A stretch of 64,000 nucleotides of DNA, taken from the NCBI GenBank assembly GCA_944393235.1, contig CALXZJ010000001.1:14096-78095 (forward strand), in the 5' to 3' direction. Below the pieces are notes generated by a model. It made no database searches and was not told where the DNA came from. It saw only the letters and a list, made by a program, of their open reading frames with translations. The stretch comes from an uncultured Alphaproteobacteria bacterium. GTDB lineage: Bacteria > Pseudomonadota > Alphaproteobacteria > RF32 > CAG-239. Both the position numbers and the translations under genes were made by a program. Below are positions 6,864 through 62,222 of this stretch, one piece after another; the first letter of the stretch is position 1, and every line of letters begins with the position of its first letter.

Positions 6864-8039
6864 TTTTTCTTTTTTGCCGCAATCAATAACAACTTCCTTA
6901 TCAATGGTGTCATACCTGATAGCTGCCAACCCTTTGCGAAAAGCCAAGGCATATTGTCCGAAAATTTCATAACGCCAACCATTTAACGCCGGATTTGTTT
7001 TATCATTCGTGCCACAGGCGATGTCGCGTAAATTTTTTTCCGAAGCCACAACACTTGAAACCACATCGTTTTGTTCGCTTTTGATTTTTAACAGCAGGCG
7101 CAGCACTTCCACCAAAGCGCCGACAGAACTTGGAACATTGACTTGGCGTTCACGGTCAATCTTTCTCAATTCGCTGCCAAAAGGCATTTGCCGCGCCTTG
7201 TCCAAAACTTCTAAGATTTCTTTCCCCAACTTGCCCTTGACGACATCTTGATGAATATTGCGCACTTTTTCCATATCCTCAGGCGTCTTCGGCGCCACCG
7301 CGGCAATATTGACAAGCATTTCGTCTTTTAAGATTGACTGCCGCGGCATATTACATTTCATGGCGCGCCGTTCTCGCCAGGCTGCCAACTCTTTAAGCAT
7401 TGCCAAAAACTGCGGACTATGCGCCGAATGGCGTATTTTAAGCCACACGCTATCCGGATCCGGCTTGTAAAGATTTTCATCGCACAAAGCGGCGGTTTCT
7501 TCATCAATCCAATGTTCGCGCCCGTGTTCCCGCAAATAAGCAGCAAGATATTGATAACACGGAATCAAAAACGTCACATCACGCAAAGCATATTCCAGCT
7601 GTTTGGTTGCAAGCGGTCGTTTGCTCCAATCAGTCAAGCGGCTGGATTTATCCAAATCAACTTTGGTAATCGCACGCACTAAATTGTCATAACTGATGGA
7701 AGGACCAAACCCGCAAACCATAGCAGCAATTTGCGTATCAAAAATCGGCGTCGGAATTTTGCCGCTCATATTATAAAAAATTTCAATATCCTGCCGACCG
7801 GAGTGAAAAACTTTCAAAATTTTTTCATCCGCCAAAACATCAAAAAACGCCGCAAAATCCATATTCGGCGCCAACGGGTCGACAATTGCGGCATCATCAA
7901 CCCAACCGATTTGCAGCAAACACAATTTCGGATAATATGTTTTCTCGCGCACAAATTCTGAATCCACAGTGATAAACGATTGTTGCCGCAGCTCCGAACA
8001 AAGTGCATTCAAGGTTTCTGTATTTTCAATTATTCTCAT
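6861..8039 (-). CDS. rnd: ribonuclease D
   Basis: DEDDy 3'-5' exonuclease domain (ITVDSEF...) plus HRDC-like C-terminus. Confidence 0.85.
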   Translation of the reverse strand: MRIIENTETLNALCSELRQQSFITVDSEFVREKTYYPKLCLLQIGWVDDAAIVDPLAPNMDFAAFFDVLADEKILKVFHSGRQDIEIFYNMSGKIPTPIFDTQIAAMVCGFGPSISYDNLVRAITKVDLDKSSRLTDWSKRPLATKQLEYALRDVTFLIPCYQYLAAYLREHGREHWIDEETAALCDENLYKPDPDSVWLKIRHSAHSPQFLAMLKELAAWRERRAMKCNMPRQSILKDEMLVNIAAVAPKTPEDMEKVRNIHQDVVKGKLGKEILEVLDKARQMPFGSELRKIDRERQVNVPSSVGALVEVLRLLLKIKSEQNDVVSSVVASEKNLRDIACGTNDKTNPALNGWRYEIFGQYALAFRKGLAAIRYDTIDKEVVIDCGKKEK

Positions 8040-11150: not shown

Positions 11151-14100
11151 ATGACCGTTCCATTTTTCAAAAAAGCAATCTGTTTGCTTTTAATGCCGCT
11201 GTTAATCATCAGCACGGCGATTCCGCCGGCAAGCGCTGCTTATAACAAACTTGCGCCCCATGATTTTTATGAAATGTATGCACTTGCCGCCAATGGCAAA
11301 ATTTCCAAATTAAGCAACGCCATCCACCGCGGTTTGGACATTGATGCCGTAAACCAAAACGGCGACACCGGTTTATGCGTTGCAGCCAAACAAAAAAATG
11401 CCAAAGCATACAACACCTTTCGGAACTTAGGCGCCAACCCCGCGCATCCTTGCACCCGGAACATTCCTCACTATCAGTCATTTGTCAATTCGCGTGCCGT
11501 GCAAGCCGGTGCTTTTTGGCAAGAAAGCAGCTATGCACCGCCGGCATACAACATGGAAAACTCCAGCTCCGACAAATGGAAACTCGCCGGCCTTTTATTA
11601 CTATTAGGCGGCGGAGCCGCAATCTTATTAAGCGGCGGCGGTGGTGGCGGCGGTAGCGATGATGAACCTGCTGAAAACCCGGGCTTGAGCTGCGAATACG
11701 GCTGCGCCGAAGAAGACGAAAACGGCAACTGCCTTGTCTGCAATGATGCCCCGGATCCTGCAGATCCCTGTGAAGAAGATCCGTGTGCGGAAGGTTGTTA
11801 TACCAATATTACCTGCGGTCCGGGTGAAACCTGCAGTCAGCAAAATGCTTGCGGCGGTTGTGAAGCATGTACGGCAACGGAAGAGCCTCCGGCCGAAGAA
11901 TGGGAGGAATTTGCCTTACAATTTTACATGTCTTCCAGCCACACAAGCTTTGAAAATGAAGAAGATATATATCATGAAAAGCCTGAAGATGTTTATGCCG
12001 AAATGGGGTATTGGGGGGGAATTAATGCTGGTCAGGGTTTTCTAACAAATACCGGAAACATAACTTTGACATCATCCGATAGTTTTTCCAGTACATGGGG
12101 GTTTGGGATTTTTAAAGGAAACTTCGACGACCGCTCTGATCTTTTAACCGATACAATGTGGAGTGCTGATTATGGTTTGACAAATTCCGGGGATATTACA
12201 ATTGATGCCCCTTCCGCTGCAACTTTGGGCATATTTACCCAAACACTTGGACAAATGGGGGATCGTGTCTTGGAGAAAATAGAATCTTTGGTAAATGAAG
12301 GAAAGATTACAATAACCGGAACCAACTCCAGCGGTATTATGCTTGTCGGCAACGGCAAACTTGACAATTCCGGTGCGATTAACATAAGCGGTCAGATGAA
12401 AAAGTCTAGACAGGGAGCTTTGTATAGTATGTATGGAACATATTCTACTCAAGCCGTTGTTGATGATAATTATATTTATCAATATGTTATGCCCACATTT
12501 CGCAATGCTGGTATATTTTTTGCCAACCATGACAGGGGGTATGGTATTGAATCGGTAATGAACAACAGCGTTACCAATTCCGGTGATATTACCTTAAATC
12601 TGGATAGTGATACCATAGATTTGGATACGCCTTTTGCGTCTGTCGGCGAAGATGAAGAGTTTCAAACCGCTGCCGGTATCAGCGTTGATTATTCGCCTCT
12701 AAATGAATATGACTTGTTAACGGTTTCAAATTCCGGCAATATTGATATTAATTTTACGTCCAGCCTGCTGGAAGAGAGTGAAGCTGATGCTGAGGCTATA
12801 TTTGCCGCACGGAAACGCTATTATATTGTCGGCTTAAATATTTCTTCTACAGAAGAAGGCAAAGATTTACTTAATGTTGAAAATACCGGAACTATATCTT
12901 TATCCGGTAATGGCTCAATGCATGGCATTGCTGCCAAAAATGCCGTTATTGAAAACAAAGGCAATATTTTTATTGATATGAACAGTCAAAAGTATGATGC
13001 CGAAACCCGTAATTTTGTATCTGTCGGTATACTGGCACAAGATTCTGTTATTAATCAATATGCCAATATTGACTATCAAATTTCCGGTGCCGGCGGTTCT
13101 TTTTATTCCGCGGCCATGTACAATAGTACCTTGAATGTCGGTCCTGATGCAAAAATTTCCGGCACCGTTGCTGCATATAACAGTACCGTTAATAATCTCG
13201 GAACAATTGAAGTGTCCGGGCAATCTGCAGATGAGAGTACTTACGGTCTTTGGCTGACCGGTGATTCCGGCGGCTATAATGAAGGGGTTATCCATGTTGA
13301 TGCATCCCAAAACGGTATTGGTGTTTATGCCGAACAAACAGAAACTGACGGTTTCGAAAACAAAGGTAGTATTATAGTTAATTCAACCAATGGCATCGGC
13401 ATGTATGCTAACAGCTATGAAGGCGGTATTCACGACCGTTATGTCAGACTTATCAACAGTGGTACGATTTCGGTTACCGGGGATAACAGTGTCGGTATGT
13501 ATGCCAACGGTGCCAATTCCGTTATTGTTAATACCGGAGAAATTATTGTTTCCGGCAATAACAGTCAGGAAACAGATACTGCGAATCGCGGTACATTTTC
13601 AGACGGCAGTAAAACAGAGGCACAGGCGTTCAGGCTTGTAAACGGTGCAGCGCTTTATAACCTTGGCACGCTGGAATCCGATGGTAATCTGGATTTTGAT
13701 GCTCTGACGGATAATCAAAGTAAAGTTATTGCTGGAAAAAGTTCTGTTATTAAGGCCGAAAGTGTTAACGGAACATTGTATGCAAGTGCAGATATTACCA
13801 CCGGCAGTAATGAGGATTATTATGAAAGCCGTGTGATTGAGGCAGAAGAAAACAATGCTACAGCAGCCTCCAACAGTGCCATGTTTGCTGCAGAAATGGC
13901 TGGCGATAAAATGGTCATGACGCGCTATGATTTTAATGAAATCGTAGCAGATAAAAATTTGGCGGCATATCTTGAGAATAATTATCAACAAGGTAACAGA
14001 GTTGATTTGTATGATACGTTTAAAGCTGCCCAAGATACTGAAGTTTTAAACAGCACAATCAGTTCTATGCTGGGAGCAGATTTTGTGCCGGCATTGGCGT

Positions 14101-14975
14101 ATCAGAATCTTGAGCGCGTACGTTATATTAACCGCACAATGGCGGATTTGATGCAGAACAATCAGTCCGATAAAGACGAACGCGTGAGTGTTATTTCCAA
14201 TAATTATTATCATGATATCAAAGCGCACGGCGGTGTCAGCGGTTATGAGGAAAAGCTGTTCGGTTTCAACGGCTTGTTTGATAAAAAAATTAATAATAAT
14301 TTTCGTTACGGCATTGGTTTGGGGCTTTACCGGGTAAATGTTGATTTTGATGACGGAATTGACCGCAATGATAATTTGTTTGAGGTTTATAATCCGTACT
14401 GGTTTGATTATGAACGCTGGGGCGCGCTTATTATGCCGTATGCCGGTTACAGCGACGGCGATTATGACCGCCGGGAAAATTCTAAAAAATACAGCGCGGA
14501 TTTAAAAGCCTGGTATTACGGCTTAAACAACCGTATTTACCTTAAAAATCAGGCTGCCGGTTTAGAAATCCGGCCGACGGCAGAATTAAACCTGAACGGC
14601 ATTTATCAGGATAATTTCAGCGAAGATGACGGGCTTTCGGTTAAAGGCAAAAATATGTTTTCAGCCGAGGCCGGGTTAGGCGCTTATGTTTCCAAGGCGG
14701 CGGATTTTGGCACCAAAGGCAAGCTCAACCTTAAAGCCGGCGCCATGTATTACTACGAGCTAAATGATGATGCCTACCAAAGCATTAATGCCCGTTTTGC
14801 CGGCATGAACGGCATGTATTATCTTGACGGATATGATAACCGCCGCAGCCGCGGCATTGTCAGCTTAAAAGCCAATTACCAATTCAAAGGTTGGAATTTG
14901 TATGCCGAAATCACACGCCTGCTTGAACATAACGACAATATGGTATATAATGCCGGCTTAAAGTACAGCTTTTAA
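11151..14975 (+). CDS. autotransporter outer-membrane protein with ankyrin-like repeats, Cys-rich module and repetitive passenger
   Basis: GAGGAG RBS. AxA signal peptide, 2 ankyrin-like repeats (NQNGDTGLCVAAKQKNAKAYNTFRNLGANP), hydrophobic/Gly segment, 14-Cys module. Passenger repeats of NSGDIT/NTGTISLSGN type. C-terminal amphipathic beta-strand region ends in the aromatic residue YSF. Confidence 0.8.
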   Translation: MTVPFFKKAICLLLMPLLIISTAIPPASAAYNKLAPHDFYEMYALAANGKISKLSNAIHRGLDIDAVNQNGDTGLCVAAKQKNAKAYNTFRNLGANPAHPCTRNIPHYQSFVNSRAVQAGAFWQESSYAPPAYNMENSSSDKWKLAGLLLLLGGGAAILLSGGGGGGGSDDEPAENPGLSCEYGCAEEDENGNCLVCNDAPDPADPCEEDPCAEGCYTNITCGPGETCSQQNACGGCEACTATEEPPAEEWEEFALQFYMSSSHTSFENEEDIYHEKPEDVYAEMGYWGGINAGQGFLTNTGNITLTSSDSFSSTWGFGIFKGNFDDRSDLLTDTMWSADYGLTNSGDITIDAPSAATLGIFTQTLGQMGDRVLEKIESLVNEGKITITGTNSSGIMLVGNGKLDNSGAINISGQMKKSRQGALYSMYGTYSTQAVVDDNYIYQYVMPTFRNAGIFFANHDRGYGIESVMNNSVTNSGDITLNLDSDTIDLDTPFASVGEDEEFQTAAGISVDYSPLNEYDLLTVSNSGNIDINFTSSLLEESEADAEAIFAARKRYYIVGLNISSTEEGKDLLNVENTGTISLSGNGSMHGIAAKNAVIENKGNIFIDMNSQKYDAETRNFVSVGILAQDSVINQYANIDYQISGAGGSFYSAAMYNSTLNVGPDAKISGTVAAYNSTVNNLGTIEVSGQSADESTYGLWLTGDSGGYNEGVIHVDASQNGIGVYAEQTETDGFENKGSIIVNSTNGIGMYANSYEGGIHDRYVRLINSGTISVTGDNSVGMYANGANSVIVNTGEIIVSGNNSQETDTANRGTFSDGSKTEAQAFRLVNGAALYNLGTLESDGNLDFDALTDNQSKVIAGKSSVIKAESVNGTLYASADITTGSNEDYYESRVIEAEENNATAASNSAMFAAEMAGDKMVMTRYDFNEIVADKNLAAYLENNYQQGNRVDLYDTFKAAQDTEVLNSTISSMLGADFVPALAYQNLERVRYINRTMADLMQNNQSDKDERVSVISNNYYHDIKAHGGVSGYEEKLFGFNGLFDKKINNNFRYGIGLGLYRVNVDFDDGIDRNDNLFEVYNPYWFDYERWGALIMPYAGYSDGDYDRRENSKKYSADLKAWYYGLNNRIYLKNQAAGLEIRPTAELNLNGIYQDNFSEDDGLSVKGKNMFSAEAGLGAYVSKAADFGTKGKLNLKAGAMYYYELNDDAYQSINARFAGMNGMYYLDGYDNRRSRGIVSLKANYQFKGWNLYAEITRLLEHNDNMVYNAGLKYSF

Positions 14976-57305: not shown

Positions 57306-57557
57306 TTAATTATCAATAACATCTTCAAAGCGGATAACGACACGTTTTTCAAACGCAGCGGCGATGAGATACAGATAATATAAATCAAGATACCCTTTAC
57401 CGATTTCCCAACGTTCAATGATTATCGGCGGAACGTTCGCTTTATGACTTAAAACATCCAAACTTATTCTATGCTGTCGGCGCAATTCGTATATTTGCTG
57501 CCCGATTTCCCGAATGGTTTGTTTGCGGTTTTTAATTGAAGTTTTTTTATCAAGCAT
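57306..57557 (-). CDS. XRE family helix-turn-helix protein
   Basis: AAGGAG RBS. HTH LRRQHRISLDVLSHKANVPPIIIERWEIG. Confidence 0.6.
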   Translation of the reverse strand: MLDKKTSIKNRKQTIREIGQQIYELRRQHRISLDVLSHKANVPPIIIERWEIGKGYLDLYYLYLIAAAFEKRVVIRFEDVIDN

Positions 57558-58956: not shown

Positions 58957-59316
58957 TTACAAATGAGTTTTTTTCATTCTTTGCCGACCGATAATGGCAT
59001 TAATATAATCAAAATTTTGGAAAGACTGATAAGCATGATCAAAACTTTTCTTATCATAAATATAAAAAACTTTATTAGCCATACTTTTTATGGCGTTATC
59101 TATTTTTCCAAACGCCTCATTATAATCTTTATTGTAATTATTTTTAGCTTTTTTCTGAACAATATCATGATAAGCGGCAATCACTTTAGCTGTTTCATCA
59201 GCAGAATTTGCATAACCTTTTTCTTCAAAATCATGCATAATCTGCGCCGTCATCTGATAAAAGCATTTATTTGTTAAAATATTTCTTTGCAAAGTATCAT
59301 TGCTATTGATAATCAT
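58957..59316 (-). CDS. hypothetical protein
   Basis: 119-aa ORF with no recognised motif. Confidence 0.4.
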   Translation of the reverse strand: MIINSNDTLQRNILTNKCFYQMTAQIMHDFEEKGYANSADETAKVIAAYHDIVQKKAKNNYNKDYNEAFGKIDNAIKSMANKVFYIYDKKSFDHAYQSFQNFDYINAIIGRQRMKKTHL

Positions 59317-59475
59317 GGCAAATAAATAACCTTTCCCAAAAAATCACTATTTACATATCACATTTTTTATTAAAATGCAAGTAAGTTATATACAGCTTTT
59401 TTCAAATCAAAAGACAAACATCCGTCCGTTATGGGCGGATGTTTGCAATTTTTTGGTAAAAATCAATCAGAAAGA

Positions 59476-60444
59476 TTAACCATCCAAACATCTTTTAGCA
59501 GAAGAATCATACGGGCAAGCGACATATCTTCCGGTACAAGATTTATCCGTATAACCCAATTCTTCACAAACCGTGCTCTTTTGAGAATTACATTTTGCAG
59601 TAAAATCCCAATATCCGTTATCACAAGAACAGGTCTTTCCACAAACCCCTTTCAAACCTGAAAAAGTTTCAGCACAAACAACATGCGCCGGAATAGAACC
59701 TTTATAATCATAGTAATCATCTGAGCAATCGTTAACGCAATTGCCGCTATAGCTGTAACCACAAATACAATCAGGTATCGAGCAAACTTTACATCTATAA
59801 ACTGTTGAGGAAACTTTTGAGCCGTTTATATTTGTACAAGAAGCATCAACACCACAGCAACAATCATTGCTACTGGTTACCCAACCATCAGCGCTTGTCG
59901 GACACACGCATCTTTCATACTTCAGTCCTTCTTCATCCTCACATGTGGCCCCCTCGCCTTTAGCAGAACTGGCACATTCATGATATTCAGACGAACATTT
60001 ACAAGTTTCATAATACTTCACACCGTCCGCACTGACACAAGCTTCACCGACACCTTCTTGGCCTTGATTTTCACAAGCAATCCAATCTTCATCACATACA
60101 CATTTTCCTACTTCACAACCCATGTACGAACCGGTGCTTGCTGAACCGATACATGTTTCACCTGTACAAACTTCGCCGGGACCATTACAATCTTCATAAA
60201 GACTGCCGTTAGAACAACAATCTTCCGGAAGATAATAATTTTCACCACCGTCTGTACAAGACTTAGCTGAACTGCTTGGAATAGTACATGTTGCATAACC
60301 GGGGCAAGCACTACTAAACGCAGCCGTCGTTAAGCAATTACTGGTATCACCACTGTCTGCCAAAAAACAAACTCGTGCTTGAGCAGGAATGCTTAACAAC
60401 AACACTCCTGTCAAAATTAAGAAGAATTTACTAATTTTAAGCAT
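59476..60444 (-). CDS. cysteine-rich secreted protein (about 46 Cys in 320 aa)
   Basis: Signal peptide MLKISKFFLILTGVLLLSIPAQA. Dense Cys pattern including CNGPGEVCTGETC. Own promoter and RBS. Confidence 0.6.
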   Translation of the reverse strand: MLKISKFFLILTGVLLLSIPAQARVCFLADSGDTSNCLTTAAFSSACPGYATCTIPSSSAKSCTDGGENYYLPEDCCSNGSLYEDCNGPGEVCTGETCIGSASTGSYMGCEVGKCVCDEDWIACENQGQEGVGEACVSADGVKYYETCKCSSEYHECASSAKGEGATCEDEEGLKYERCVCPTSADGWVTSSNDCCCGVDASCTNINGSKVSSTVYRCKVCSIPDCICGYSYSGNCVNDCSDDYYDYKGSIPAHVVCAETFSGLKGVCGKTCSCDNGYWDFTAKCNSQKSTVCEELGYTDKSCTGRYVACPYDSSAKRCLDG

Positions 60445-60480
60445 CACAGCCCCCGATAATAAACAACCATACATACTACA

Positions 60481-60509
60481 TATCTTACTAGAAAAAGCCA
60501 AAAATGTCA
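60481..60509 (-). promoter_or_regulatory. candidate sigma70 promoter of the Cys-rich protein gene (TTGACA -35, 17-nt spacer, TAAGAT -10)
   Basis: Read on the minus strand about 35 nt upstream of the start codon. Confidence 0.4.
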
Positions 60510-60607
60510 ACTGTCCTTTTATTTAGACGCAAACACCAAAGCATTACTTTAAATCAACTAATGCCAACCGGTAAATTTTTGGTTGGCATTATTGTATTGC
60601 AATGCAA

Positions 60608-61204
60608 TTACTTGCTTTTTTCTCGCAAATTAGCAATCAAACCATCAACACCGTCCGGTGATTTTTTAATAAATGCGGCATATTCGTTACGTGCCGTAAT
60701 TGCCAAACTGACATTTTCAATAATAATATCAACTATCTTAAATTTTCCATCATCTTCTTTAACCCGCCAAACAACCTTTGCCGGCGCACCTTGCTCCATT
60801 GGCACTTCAGTATTTACAAAAATCTGACCGGCTGAATTTGATGGCGTCGTTCCCTTAAAAACAAAAGTTTTGCCCTTAAACTCATCAAAACGTTTTGACC
60901 ATGTTTTAATATTCATCTCTCGATAAACATCAATAAATTCCGTACGCTGCTTGGGTGTTGAAGTTCGCCAATAACGCCCCAAAACAAAGCGCCCGATAAA
61001 ATCCAGGTCCAGATATTCATTAAAAAGTTTGGCAAAGCGGGCATCTTTTTCTTCCACAGACACATCAGAATTAATAATTTCTTCAATTCCCTGCGTTGTA
61101 ACCTTTTTAATAAAGTCTTCGGCTTTTTGTGCATTAACTTCGGCTTGAGCCAAACCTGTCGACAACAAAAAAACCGCTGCCATAAAAGTCAACAATTTCC
61201 GCAT
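60608..61204 (-). CDS. mlaC: MlaC/Ttg2D family phospholipid-binding periplasmic protein
   Basis: Signal peptide plus Ttg2D-family sequence. AAGGAG RBS. Confidence 0.8.
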   Translation of the reverse strand: MRKLLTFMAAVFLLSTGLAQAEVNAQKAEDFIKKVTTQGIEEIINSDVSVEEKDARFAKLFNEYLDLDFIGRFVLGRYWRTSTPKQRTEFIDVYREMNIKTWSKRFDEFKGKTFVFKGTTPSNSAGQIFVNTEVPMEQGAPAKVVWRVKEDDGKFKIVDIIIENVSLAITARNEYAAFIKKSPDGVDGLIANLREKSK

Positions 61205-61225: not shown

Positions 61226-62017
61226 TTATTCCATTTCTTCATCAAAGGCATCATCATAGCCAAAGTCAAAATCATAGCTTAAAGCATCTTCATCGGCGTT
61301 ATTCTCTGCGCACAAGCTGGTAAATTTTTGCCGATTTTGTAAAAAGGCAGACTTCATCGTTGCATAAAAATCAACCGAACCCTCTTCCAAGCTTTCCAAC
61401 AATCCCATATTTTCGGCATAAATATTAATATATTTAAGCCCTGTTGCACCGACAACTGCTGCATCAACCCCATCATCTTCCACATCTATCAGCGCCCAGA
61501 ACAACGGACTGGCATAGGCATCAGCCGACCAGCCGATAACATACCGCGGTGTTGCCGGACCGATAATCGGCAAAATAAAGAAAGGGCCGTCCGGCACACA
61601 ATACTTTGCCATTGTTTGGTCAAAGCTGTTCTTTTTTTTCTCAAGCCCCCAACCGGCAGCCACATCAAAAGTGCCGGCCAAACCCAAAGTTGTATTAATC
61701 AAAAAGCGCCCGACAGAAACGCCGCTGTTTTTGATTTCGCCTTGGAAAAGATTGTTTACAAAATAAGCCGGCTCTTCCAGGTTATTAAAAAAAGCACTAA
61801 CCCGGTCGCGAAAAAACTGATTTGTAACGCTTTTATACCCCTCTGCCACCGGTTTCATAACCTTTTTATTAAATTGATAATTAAAATTAAACATGGCACG
61901 GTTATAATATTCCACCCCTGATTCCTCATCATCGGCAGACAATTTGCTTCCATCCGGATTCGTGGCGCAAGCAGCAAGACTAAAAATCAAAAACACTAAC
62001 AGGGAAATTTTTTTCAT
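61226..62017 (-). CDS. mlaA: MlaA/VacJ family outer-membrane lipoprotein
   Basis: Lipobox LAAC. VacJ-family sequence. Start trimmed to MKKISLL at 62017. Confidence 0.8.
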   Translation of the reverse strand: MKKISLLVFLIFSLAACATNPDGSKLSADDEESGVEYYNRAMFNFNYQFNKKVMKPVAEGYKSVTNQFFRDRVSAFFNNLEEPAYFVNNLFQGEIKNSGVSVGRFLINTTLGLAGTFDVAAGWGLEKKKNSFDQTMAKYCVPDGPFFILPIIGPATPRYVIGWSADAYASPLFWALIDVEDDGVDAAVVGATGLKYINIYAENMGLLESLEEGSVDFYATMKSAFLQNRQKFTSLCAENNADEDALSYDFDFGYDDAFDEEME

Positions 62018-62222
62018 AAGCTTATCCTTCTTCATCCTGCTCAAATTGCTATAAATATATCAACTCCGCTGATTAAATCAATAAAAATATAAAAAACCTT
62101 GATGATATATTAGTATGGAAAACATTTTTTTGTTACAATCAAGAAATATCTTGTGTGTTGCATCAATAATATAAGTAACCTATTATCACACCCAGTTTTG
62201 AACTTTATTAAAGGATAGAAAA

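Follow-up and report, generated by a model that had tools for sequence, protein, structure and literature searches.

Within a 64,000-nucleotide stretch of DNA from an uncultured Alphaproteobacteria bacterium (contig CALXZJ010000001.1, positions 14,096 to 78,095; hereafter the window), the open reading frame (ORF) at 59476..60444 on the minus strand is a real gene, with its own promoter, for an exported disulfide-rich protein of 322 amino acids. The family to which this protein belongs is undescribed and fast-evolving, and its range is restricted to one clade of uncultured Alphaproteobacteria from the gut. We consider the chances slightly better than even that the window protein is an exported, fully disulfide-bonded, rod-like scaffold facing the environment, present here in a core-only form.

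The cysteine-rich protein and its family

The protein contains 40 cysteines (12.4% of residues), every one of them in the mature part, which has a mass of roughly 30 kDa; across the other 45 window ORFs of at least 200 amino acids the median cysteine share is 1.1%, and the next highest value is 4.0%. The first-pass annotation of this DNA had estimated about 46 cysteines in 320 residues, a figure that our count corrects; the three cysteine motifs it quoted are all present, with CNGPGEVCTGETC at residues 86–98, CKCSSEYHEC at 148–157, and CCCGVDASC at 195–203. CxC and CC(C) motifs occur alongside a single CxxC, no CxxCH, two histidines, and 28 aromatic residues.

The signal peptide was called by inspection and from conservation in homologues. 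It reads MLKISKFFLILTGVLLLSIPAQA and is followed by RVC, combining a lysine-bearing n-region, a hydrophobic core, and an AxA site, and the succession of AxA and [RK]VC is kept across the family, so the clear signal peptide seen in the first-pass annotation stands as a conserved Sec-type signal. The lipobox pattern [LVI][ASTVI][GAS]C is absent (the sequence runs A-R-V-C), and assignment as a bacterial lipoprotein fails because valine at −1 and arginine at −2 are unsuitable and a signal peptidase I site of the AxA type precedes. We placed the start codon at 60444, and not at an upstream TTG or ATG, because a Shine-Dalgarno sequence, CGGGGGCTGT, lies just 5′ of it and is kept in the orthologous loci; a second line of support is the MLKI/MxKI start shared with the homologues. 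Some gene callers chose upstream starts, as in P0001 and P0109, and such starts would fall inside or just past the promoter.

All 40 cysteines are invariant among the 14 members (96–100% identical) of the window protein's 90% cluster, and in 20 homologues at 35–50% identity 25 are invariant and a further 12 at least 90% conserved (37/40 in total). Conserved positions other than cysteine are mostly glycines and aromatics, plus a few such as proline, aspartate, and the RV..FL N-terminal signature. Of the 20 members, 18 have an even number of core cysteines, 40, 38, or 36 (binomial tail 2e − 4, for sequences that are not independent of one another). Gains and losses are paired as well: two extra cysteines near query positions 163 and 176, in the second copy of a module that we call A, co-occur in the same four homologues, and C293 and C303, in a second type of module (B), are jointly missing in one homologue. 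Conservation of 37 of the 40 cysteines, even counts, and paired gain and loss are the grounds on which we read the cysteines as structural; the pattern fits, and indicates, that the 40 cysteines would form about 20 structural disulfide bonds.

Structure prediction with AlphaFold2 (AF2) on 20 sequences produced an all-beta-hairpin model, a chain of beta-hairpins with a predicted local distance difference test score (pLDDT) of 83 and a predicted template modelling score (pTM) of 0.51, superseding an earlier run with 6 sequences (pLDDT 60). The modest pTM is what loosely coupled modules, as beads on a string, would be expected to give.

A word-indexed search recovered five relatives, and searching all of 1.84 billion representatives with a profile returned 104 matches, 21 of them with E ≤ 1e − 30 and about 20 spanning the full core. 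The five core-encoding loci in the genome collection come from metagenome-assembled genomes (MAGs) of uncultured Alphaproteobacteria, one labelled Azospirillaceae, and every family member that could be placed belongs to such a MAG. The exact window protein was found on nine contigs in NCBI, ENA, and Logan assemblies. The outcome that would have reduced the gene to an orphan low-complexity ORF thus fails, since homologues exist in other genomes. Of the proposal that it represents a lineage-specific family with a domain also found in a neighbouring autotransporter, the restriction to a lineage held up and the shared domain did not (see below).

When tested against described families, the window protein joined none. 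It matched no Pfam family at E ≤ 1, the EGF, TNFR, and laminin-type domains included. NCBIfam, PHROGs, and PADLOC likewise gave no match, and none of the four collections recognised the cysteine modules of its module-bearing relatives. A sequence profile search of the PDB returned only a chance match (E = 0.13), and Foldseek against PDB and BFVD found nothing at E ≤ 0.001, the top, non-significant folds being NEL and complement CCP proteins (E ≥ 0.15, TM ≤ 0.16). Nothing pointed to a phage or mobile origin: neither tblastn on phage genomes nor an IMG/VR scan yielded a match. We rejected the candidate assignment as a phage or defence-system protein on the lack of any PHROGs, PADLOC, phage-genome, or viral-contig match, together with the normal GC content. 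No literature specific to the family was found; the sole relevant paper defines an architecture class, discussed at the end.

Modular anatomy and the autotransporter comparison

The gene and its product divide into the following parts, from the ribosome-binding site to the stop codon.

60450..60454, minus strand: Shine-Dalgarno GGGGG, 5 nt 5′ of the ATG at 60444, by sequence reading
60376..60444, minus strand: signal peptide, residues 1–23, cleavage between AQA and R; signal peptidase I type, no lipobox
60331..60375, minus strand: mature N-terminal signature RVCFL-x8-C, residues 24–38
60190..60330, minus strand: N-terminal cysteine-rich region, residues 39–85, CPGY..C..P......C......Y.PEDCC
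60076..60189, minus strand: degenerate module-A-like unit, residues 86–123, holding CNGPGEVC
59977..60075, minus strand: module A copy 1, residues 124–156, C..GQEGVGEAC......YYETCKCSSEY
59893..59976, minus strand: module A copy 2, residues 157–184, matched by the module A hidden Markov model (HMM) at E = 2e − 4
59593..59892, minus strand: family-specific middle region, residues 185–284, with 14 cysteines, matched only by full-length members
59488..59592, minus strand: module B, residues 285–319, C.......CEELGYTDKSCTGRYVACPYDSSAKRC
59476..59478, minus strand: stop codon, reached 3 residues past module B, giving the core-only form

The two named modules recur elsewhere. The pattern of module A is C-x(3-6)-G-x-G-x2-C-x(1-7)-[YF]-x2-C-x-C-x3-[YFW], and an HMM built solely from arrays in unrelated proteins matched residues 124–154 of the window protein (E = 3e − 6), where copy 1 is modelled as a hairpin with pLDDT above 90. 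Long arrays of this module occur in P0026 and P0035; in P0027 it flanks an above-threshold Lcl_C domain (PF07603), in P0032 an Lcl_C match falls below threshold, and by eye P0030 looks alike. Module B reads C-x2-[LIM]-G-[YF]-x(3-5)-C-x(5-7)-C-P-[FYW]-D-x(4-5)-C (unit CxxLGYTxxxCxGxxxxCPYDxxxKxC), and an HMM from 50 instances in other proteins matched residues 293–319 with E = 2.7e − 14. It directly follows the signal peptide in many small proteins, and is present twice in P0050-like proteins, N-terminal to tail-collar or tail-fibre-like domains. The large proteins in which modules A and B recur look extracellular; the genomic contexts of module-sharing proteins were uninformative.

Between and around these modules, residues 39–85 have conserved cysteines, prolines, and tyrosines with pLDDT of about 90, and this region recurs in other proteins that match profile positions 1–95 only. 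The module A HMM matched residues 86–123 only weakly and in part; beta-hairpins are predicted there, and the GPGE residues are not conserved. The middle region carries conserved CTN...VYKC, CxCGY, and C.D..Y.Y.G.IP elements and is predicted to form beta-hairpins (pLDDT 75–92).

At the mature N-terminus, R24 and V25 are at least 90% conserved and C26, F27, L28, and C37 are invariant, with low AF2 confidence over residues 24–38. The string [VI]CF[LI] occurs within the first 110 residues of approximately 35 of 105 profile matches, in most cases where the mature chain starts, and the protein of locus L012 has it too. This signature could serve in sorting or anchoring. The wider form [RK][VI]CF[LI]-x(2-10)-C is shared by about 35 of these 105 matches and is conserved at the mature start of many different cysteine-rich exported proteins (P0002–P0104, L012:117-2237). 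The L012 contig (CAVGVF010000007.1, labelled uncultured Eubacteriales) encodes a 706-residue cysteine-rich protein with an AQARVCFL start next to a FadL/TodX outer-membrane protein (PF03349, 1e − 95); the bin has probably been mislabelled, and a Gram-negative source is likely.

The window also encodes, at 11151..14975 on the plus strand, an autotransporter of 1274 amino acids (PF03797, 5e − 20), in which a module of 12 cysteines at residues 181–240 follows a poly-glycine linker and contains, as the first-pass annotation had said, CGPGETC (residues 222–228). That annotation went on to propose a lineage-specific CxGPGExC domain common to this N-terminal module and the cysteine-rich protein. We give this almost no credence. 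What speaks for it is the occurrence of GPGE(V/T)C within cysteine-rich stretches of both proteins. Direct comparison did not extend the likeness: BLASTP of one against the other gave E = 1.9, on the GPGE motif itself, hhalign of the family profile against the autotransporter cysteine module returned a probability of 0.04%, and the module A and B HMMs found nothing in the autotransporter at E ≤ 100. Nor is the motif a family trait, as NGPGEVC is replaced among the orthologues by SSTGKVC, ANGQKCM, and others at the same site. Pfam finds nothing in the N-terminal 183 residues of the autotransporter; relatives of its N-terminus form a separate set without overlap with the cysteine-rich family, and two of them carry precomputed Laminin_EGF (PF00053) matches.

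Evolutionary rate, locus, and orthologue extensions

The cysteine-rich protein evolves 4–20 times faster than its neighbours. Between the window and the orthologous locus L007 its amino-acid identity is 50%, as against 97% for DegT, 96% for GpsA, 95% for a 119-residue protein encoded next to it, 86% for MlaC, and 82% for MlaA, and the between-species number of nonsynonymous substitutions per site (dN) is 0.42–0.50 versus 0.02–0.12 for neighbours. The contrast also holds within the species: in comparisons of the window with L015 and L016, where synonymous polymorphism (pS) is about 0.04, the ratio of nonsynonymous to synonymous polymorphism (pN/pS) is 0.43 for the cysteine-rich gene versus 0.00–0.11 for neighbours (Fisher p = 4.5e − 4 for L015 and 1.2e − 5 for L016). 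Variability is uniform over all modules, and no hypervariable segment was found. Change in this gene has thus been much faster while its scaffold stayed fixed. Diversifying selection is not claimed, since overall omega is below 1 for both pN/pS and dN/dS and the synonymous rate (dS) is saturated between species. The most variable neighbour within the species is an 83-residue HTH_3-like protein encoded at 57306–57557 on the minus strand, between prfA and gpsA, with 3 non-synonymous and 7 synonymous differences from L015.

Around the gene the window holds the following features.

61226..62044, minus strand: mlaA (Pfam MlaA, 5e − 59)
60608..61204, minus strand: mlaC (Pfam MlaC, 4e − 39)
60559..60591, hairpin, no strand assigned: between mlaC and the promoter, likely terminator of mlaA-mlaC
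60482..60510, minus strand: sigma-70-type promoter TTGACA-17-TAAGAT, 10/12 matches in a consensus scan
59415..59445, hairpin, no strand assigned: GC-rich, 14 bp, with T-runs on both sides, likely terminator of the cysteine-rich gene
58957..59316, minus strand: 119-amino-acid protein of unassigned family, downstream of the cysteine-rich gene and followed by gpsA

The near-consensus promoter of the first-pass annotation was recovered at 60510..60482, and TTGACA-17-TAnnAT stands 31–39 nt 5′ of the ATG in 8/8 orthologous loci examined, divergent loci whose proteins are 40–50% identical. Because promoter and Shine-Dalgarno are both conserved in the eight loci, the gene is an independent unit and probably well expressed. 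The hairpins by which it had been described as bounded were located at 60559–60591 and 59415–59445; the minus-strand tail of the latter reads TCTTTTGATTTG, and hairpin and T-run elements occupy the equivalent position between mlaC and the gene in L001, L007, L008, and L009. An Rfam scan of the window found no RNA element.

The position downstream of mlaA-mlaC on the same strand was confirmed. In all close relatives (eight species examined) the gene order is degT, divergently oriented, then mlaA, mlaC, the cysteine-rich gene, the 119-residue gene, and gpsA. The 119-residue protein lacks a signal peptide and matched nothing in Pfam or PADLOC; it is 85–95% identical across loci where the cysteine-rich protein is 40–50% identical, and its gene always lies directly upstream of gpsA. 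More distant relatives retain this pair without the cysteine-rich gene or mlaAC beside it, and in L027 a related gene is located after fabZ instead. Synteny with mla is no specific functional evidence because every neighbour is equally syntenic.

The core stands without an extension in several members, including those of the window, L010, and L019 and P0008, and other members carry a cysteine-rich C-terminal extension of approximately 200–1200 amino acids built of C-x-G-Y...C...G-W...C-x-C units; in the L001, L005, L007, and L008 orthologues it runs for about 200–260 amino acids past the core. The L002 species encodes the extension in an ORF of its own that overlaps the core, with a G9 tract at the junction (L002:3880-3888; also L003, L004, and L011), where G8 would fuse the frames. 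Three independent assemblies of that species agree on G9, and no variation in tract length was seen. In L007 the junction has G8 (6969-6976) and the extension is in frame. These two junction tracts are the only G/C runs of at least 8 in the 281 kb examined. Phase-variable contingency genes with poly-G tracts are known from Neisseria, Haemophilus, and Campylobacter, and the homopolymers of L002 and L007, placed exactly at the boundary of core and extension, recall them, with the difference that slippage would alter the C-terminal extension of the orthologue and not switch off the whole protein. We regard these tracts as candidates for slipped-strand phase variation in the orthologues. In the window gene and its flanks every G/C run is shorter than 7 and every A/T run shorter than 9, unlike in a phase-variable contingency gene.

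Alleles of the L007 species (P0160–P0164) are about 98% identical apart from two alternative C-terminal tips of approximately 70 amino acids. In P0162 (345 amino acids), a different signal peptide and module B are joined to an L007-type extension that is over 90% identical (95% DNA identity), and its gene (L027:400-1437) lies between fabZ and the 119-residue–gpsA pair in another genome. This pattern suggests cassette exchange at the extension. Cassette exchange and possible slippage are features associated with surface-exposed proteins; here they are leads that bear on the orthologues and not on the window gene.

Possible roles and comparison with known systems

In the scaffold reading, the window protein would be transcribed alone from a strong promoter conserved across species and exported via Sec. 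After cleavage behind AQA, oxidation outside the cytoplasm would give it about 20 intramolecular disulfides. It would fold into a chain of small beta-hairpin modules, running from the RVCFL loop through the cysteine-rich region, two clear and one degenerate module A, and the middle part to module B. The product would be a rigid, protease-resistant extracytoplasmic scaffold facing the environment, either surface-attached or released. Constraint would be limited to the disulfide, glycine, and aromatic skeleton, leaving exposed residues free to change fast; in sister species the same core would bear the variable cysteine-rich C-terminal array as a likely ligand-binding or antigenic end. From these features we infer a location beyond the periplasm and a role as scaffold, adhesin, or coat, and a part in surface or host interaction is plausible.

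Several points weigh against this reading. The only targeting feature recognised is the Sec signal, with no lipobox, beta-barrel, or recognisable outer-membrane secretion or anchoring signal, so that the protein may stay in the periplasm, and no binding or enzymatic domain was recognised in it. Relaxed constraint accounts for the evolutionary rate as well as diversifying selection does; between species dS is near saturation, and no dN/dS ratio is claimed there. The poly-G tracts belong to orthologues, the window gene having neither tract nor extension. Finally, the pairing scheme of the cysteines is one that we infer.

Two other candidate roles are a multi-headed disulfide-stabilised protease inhibitor, giving the envelope of a gut bacterium ecotin-like protection from host or microbial proteases, and a periplasmic partner of MlaA and MlaC, an accessory to the Mla lipid-asymmetry pathway. 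We judge the inhibitor unlikely and the Mla accessory a shade more so. Tandem small disulfide-rich modules, fast evolution on a fixed cysteine scaffold, and strong expression signals are typical of inhibitors, and the homologue P0005 shows a weak Bowman-Birk match (E = 0.3); that match is non-significant and absent from the window protein, searches of Pfam, the PDB, and folds recovered no inhibitor family, and the uniform variability leaves no hot spot of the kind a reactive loop would produce. For Mla, the conserved order of mlaA, mlaC, and the gene in all eight close species examined, and a Sec signal without outer-membrane targeting, have to be set against a gene with its own conserved promoter, split from mlaC by a terminator hairpin and evolving 4–20 times faster than MlaA/MlaC in a neighbourhood that is syntenic throughout. 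Distant relatives, moreover, keep the 119-residue–gpsA pair without the gene or mlaAC, the related gene of L027 lies after fabZ, and the protein has no Pfam or NCBIfam match to MlaA-F.

Its cysteine content (12.4%) and the CxC and CC(C) motifs might instead recall a metallothionein-like metal-binding or thiol-buffering protein, which we hold to be very improbable. Metallothioneins are small and aromatic-poor with reduced thiolate clusters; the window protein is exported to an oxidising compartment, is 322 amino acids long with 28 aromatics, and has one CxxC and two histidines. Even cysteine numbers in 18/20 members, the paired gain and loss of cysteines, and the confident beta-hairpin prediction also speak for disulfides over metal ligands.

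Beyond the scaffold reading, we tentatively put forward a broader joint proposal, which we think possible but would not expect to hold in full: modules A and B and the RVCFL loop may represent an undescribed bacterial superfamily of extracellular disulfide-rich domains, a functional counterpart of eukaryotic EGF-type repeats, and the gene may encode a variable surface coat or adhesin that diversifies by rapid substitution, C-terminal cassette swaps, and, in some species, poly-G slippage by which the distal array is gained or lost. Its working could then be likened to the variant-specific surface proteins (VSPs) of Giardia or to Neisseria contingency loci.

It is rare for a bacterial protein to hold about 20 disulfides in 300 residues, and neither a Pfam or NCBIfam model nor a PDB match by sequence or fold exists for this family. 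The gene is the fastest-evolving in an otherwise highly conserved neighbourhood of uncultured gut Alphaproteobacteria and, if its product is exposed, would be a candidate interface to host proteases, immunity, mucus, or phages; it would gain in interest should its exposure at the surface and its phase or cassette variation prove true. Modules A and B, reused in many uncharacterised secreted proteins, merit definition as new domain families, and interest also attaches to their compact disulfide frameworks for use as stable scaffolds.

Among known systems, Giardia VSPs are defined by numerous CXXC motifs together with a transmembrane anchor and a tail reading CRGKA. The window protein is like them, by analogy, in its cysteine content of about 12%, its protease-rich gut habitat, and a fast or variable sequence on a fixed cysteine framework, and unlike them in having one CxxC and no anchor; there is no homology. 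With the Lcl-type/DUF1566 proteins of Legionella (Lcl_C, PF07603) the link is through module A repeats in giant proteins, P0027 with its Lcl_C domain among them; the window protein has no Lcl_C domain or collagen-like repeats, and the spacer-like module alone is held in common.

The closest known kind, as judged from the sequence, appears to be the architecture of secreted cysteine-rich repeat proteins (SCREPs; Maxwell et al., Front Pharmacol 2018, PMC6262176), many unreviewed examples of which, that paper notes, are bacterial. The window protein shares with it a signal peptide followed by at least two tandem cysteine-rich units (module A, residues 124–154 and 157–184), the Sec signal being the one export feature recognised; SCREP, however, is an architecture label and not a homologous family, and the units here are heterogeneous (A, B, and unique parts) instead of one repeated domain. 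In function, the nearest parallel is with EGF-like spacers. The cysteine spacing of the window protein differs from that of eukaryotic EGF-like, laminin-EGF, TNFR, and CCP repeats, and sub-threshold cEGF matches occur only in the extensions of homologues; the likeness would lie in beads-on-a-string beta-hairpin modules pinned by disulfides, which in extracellular proteins serve as rigid spacers.

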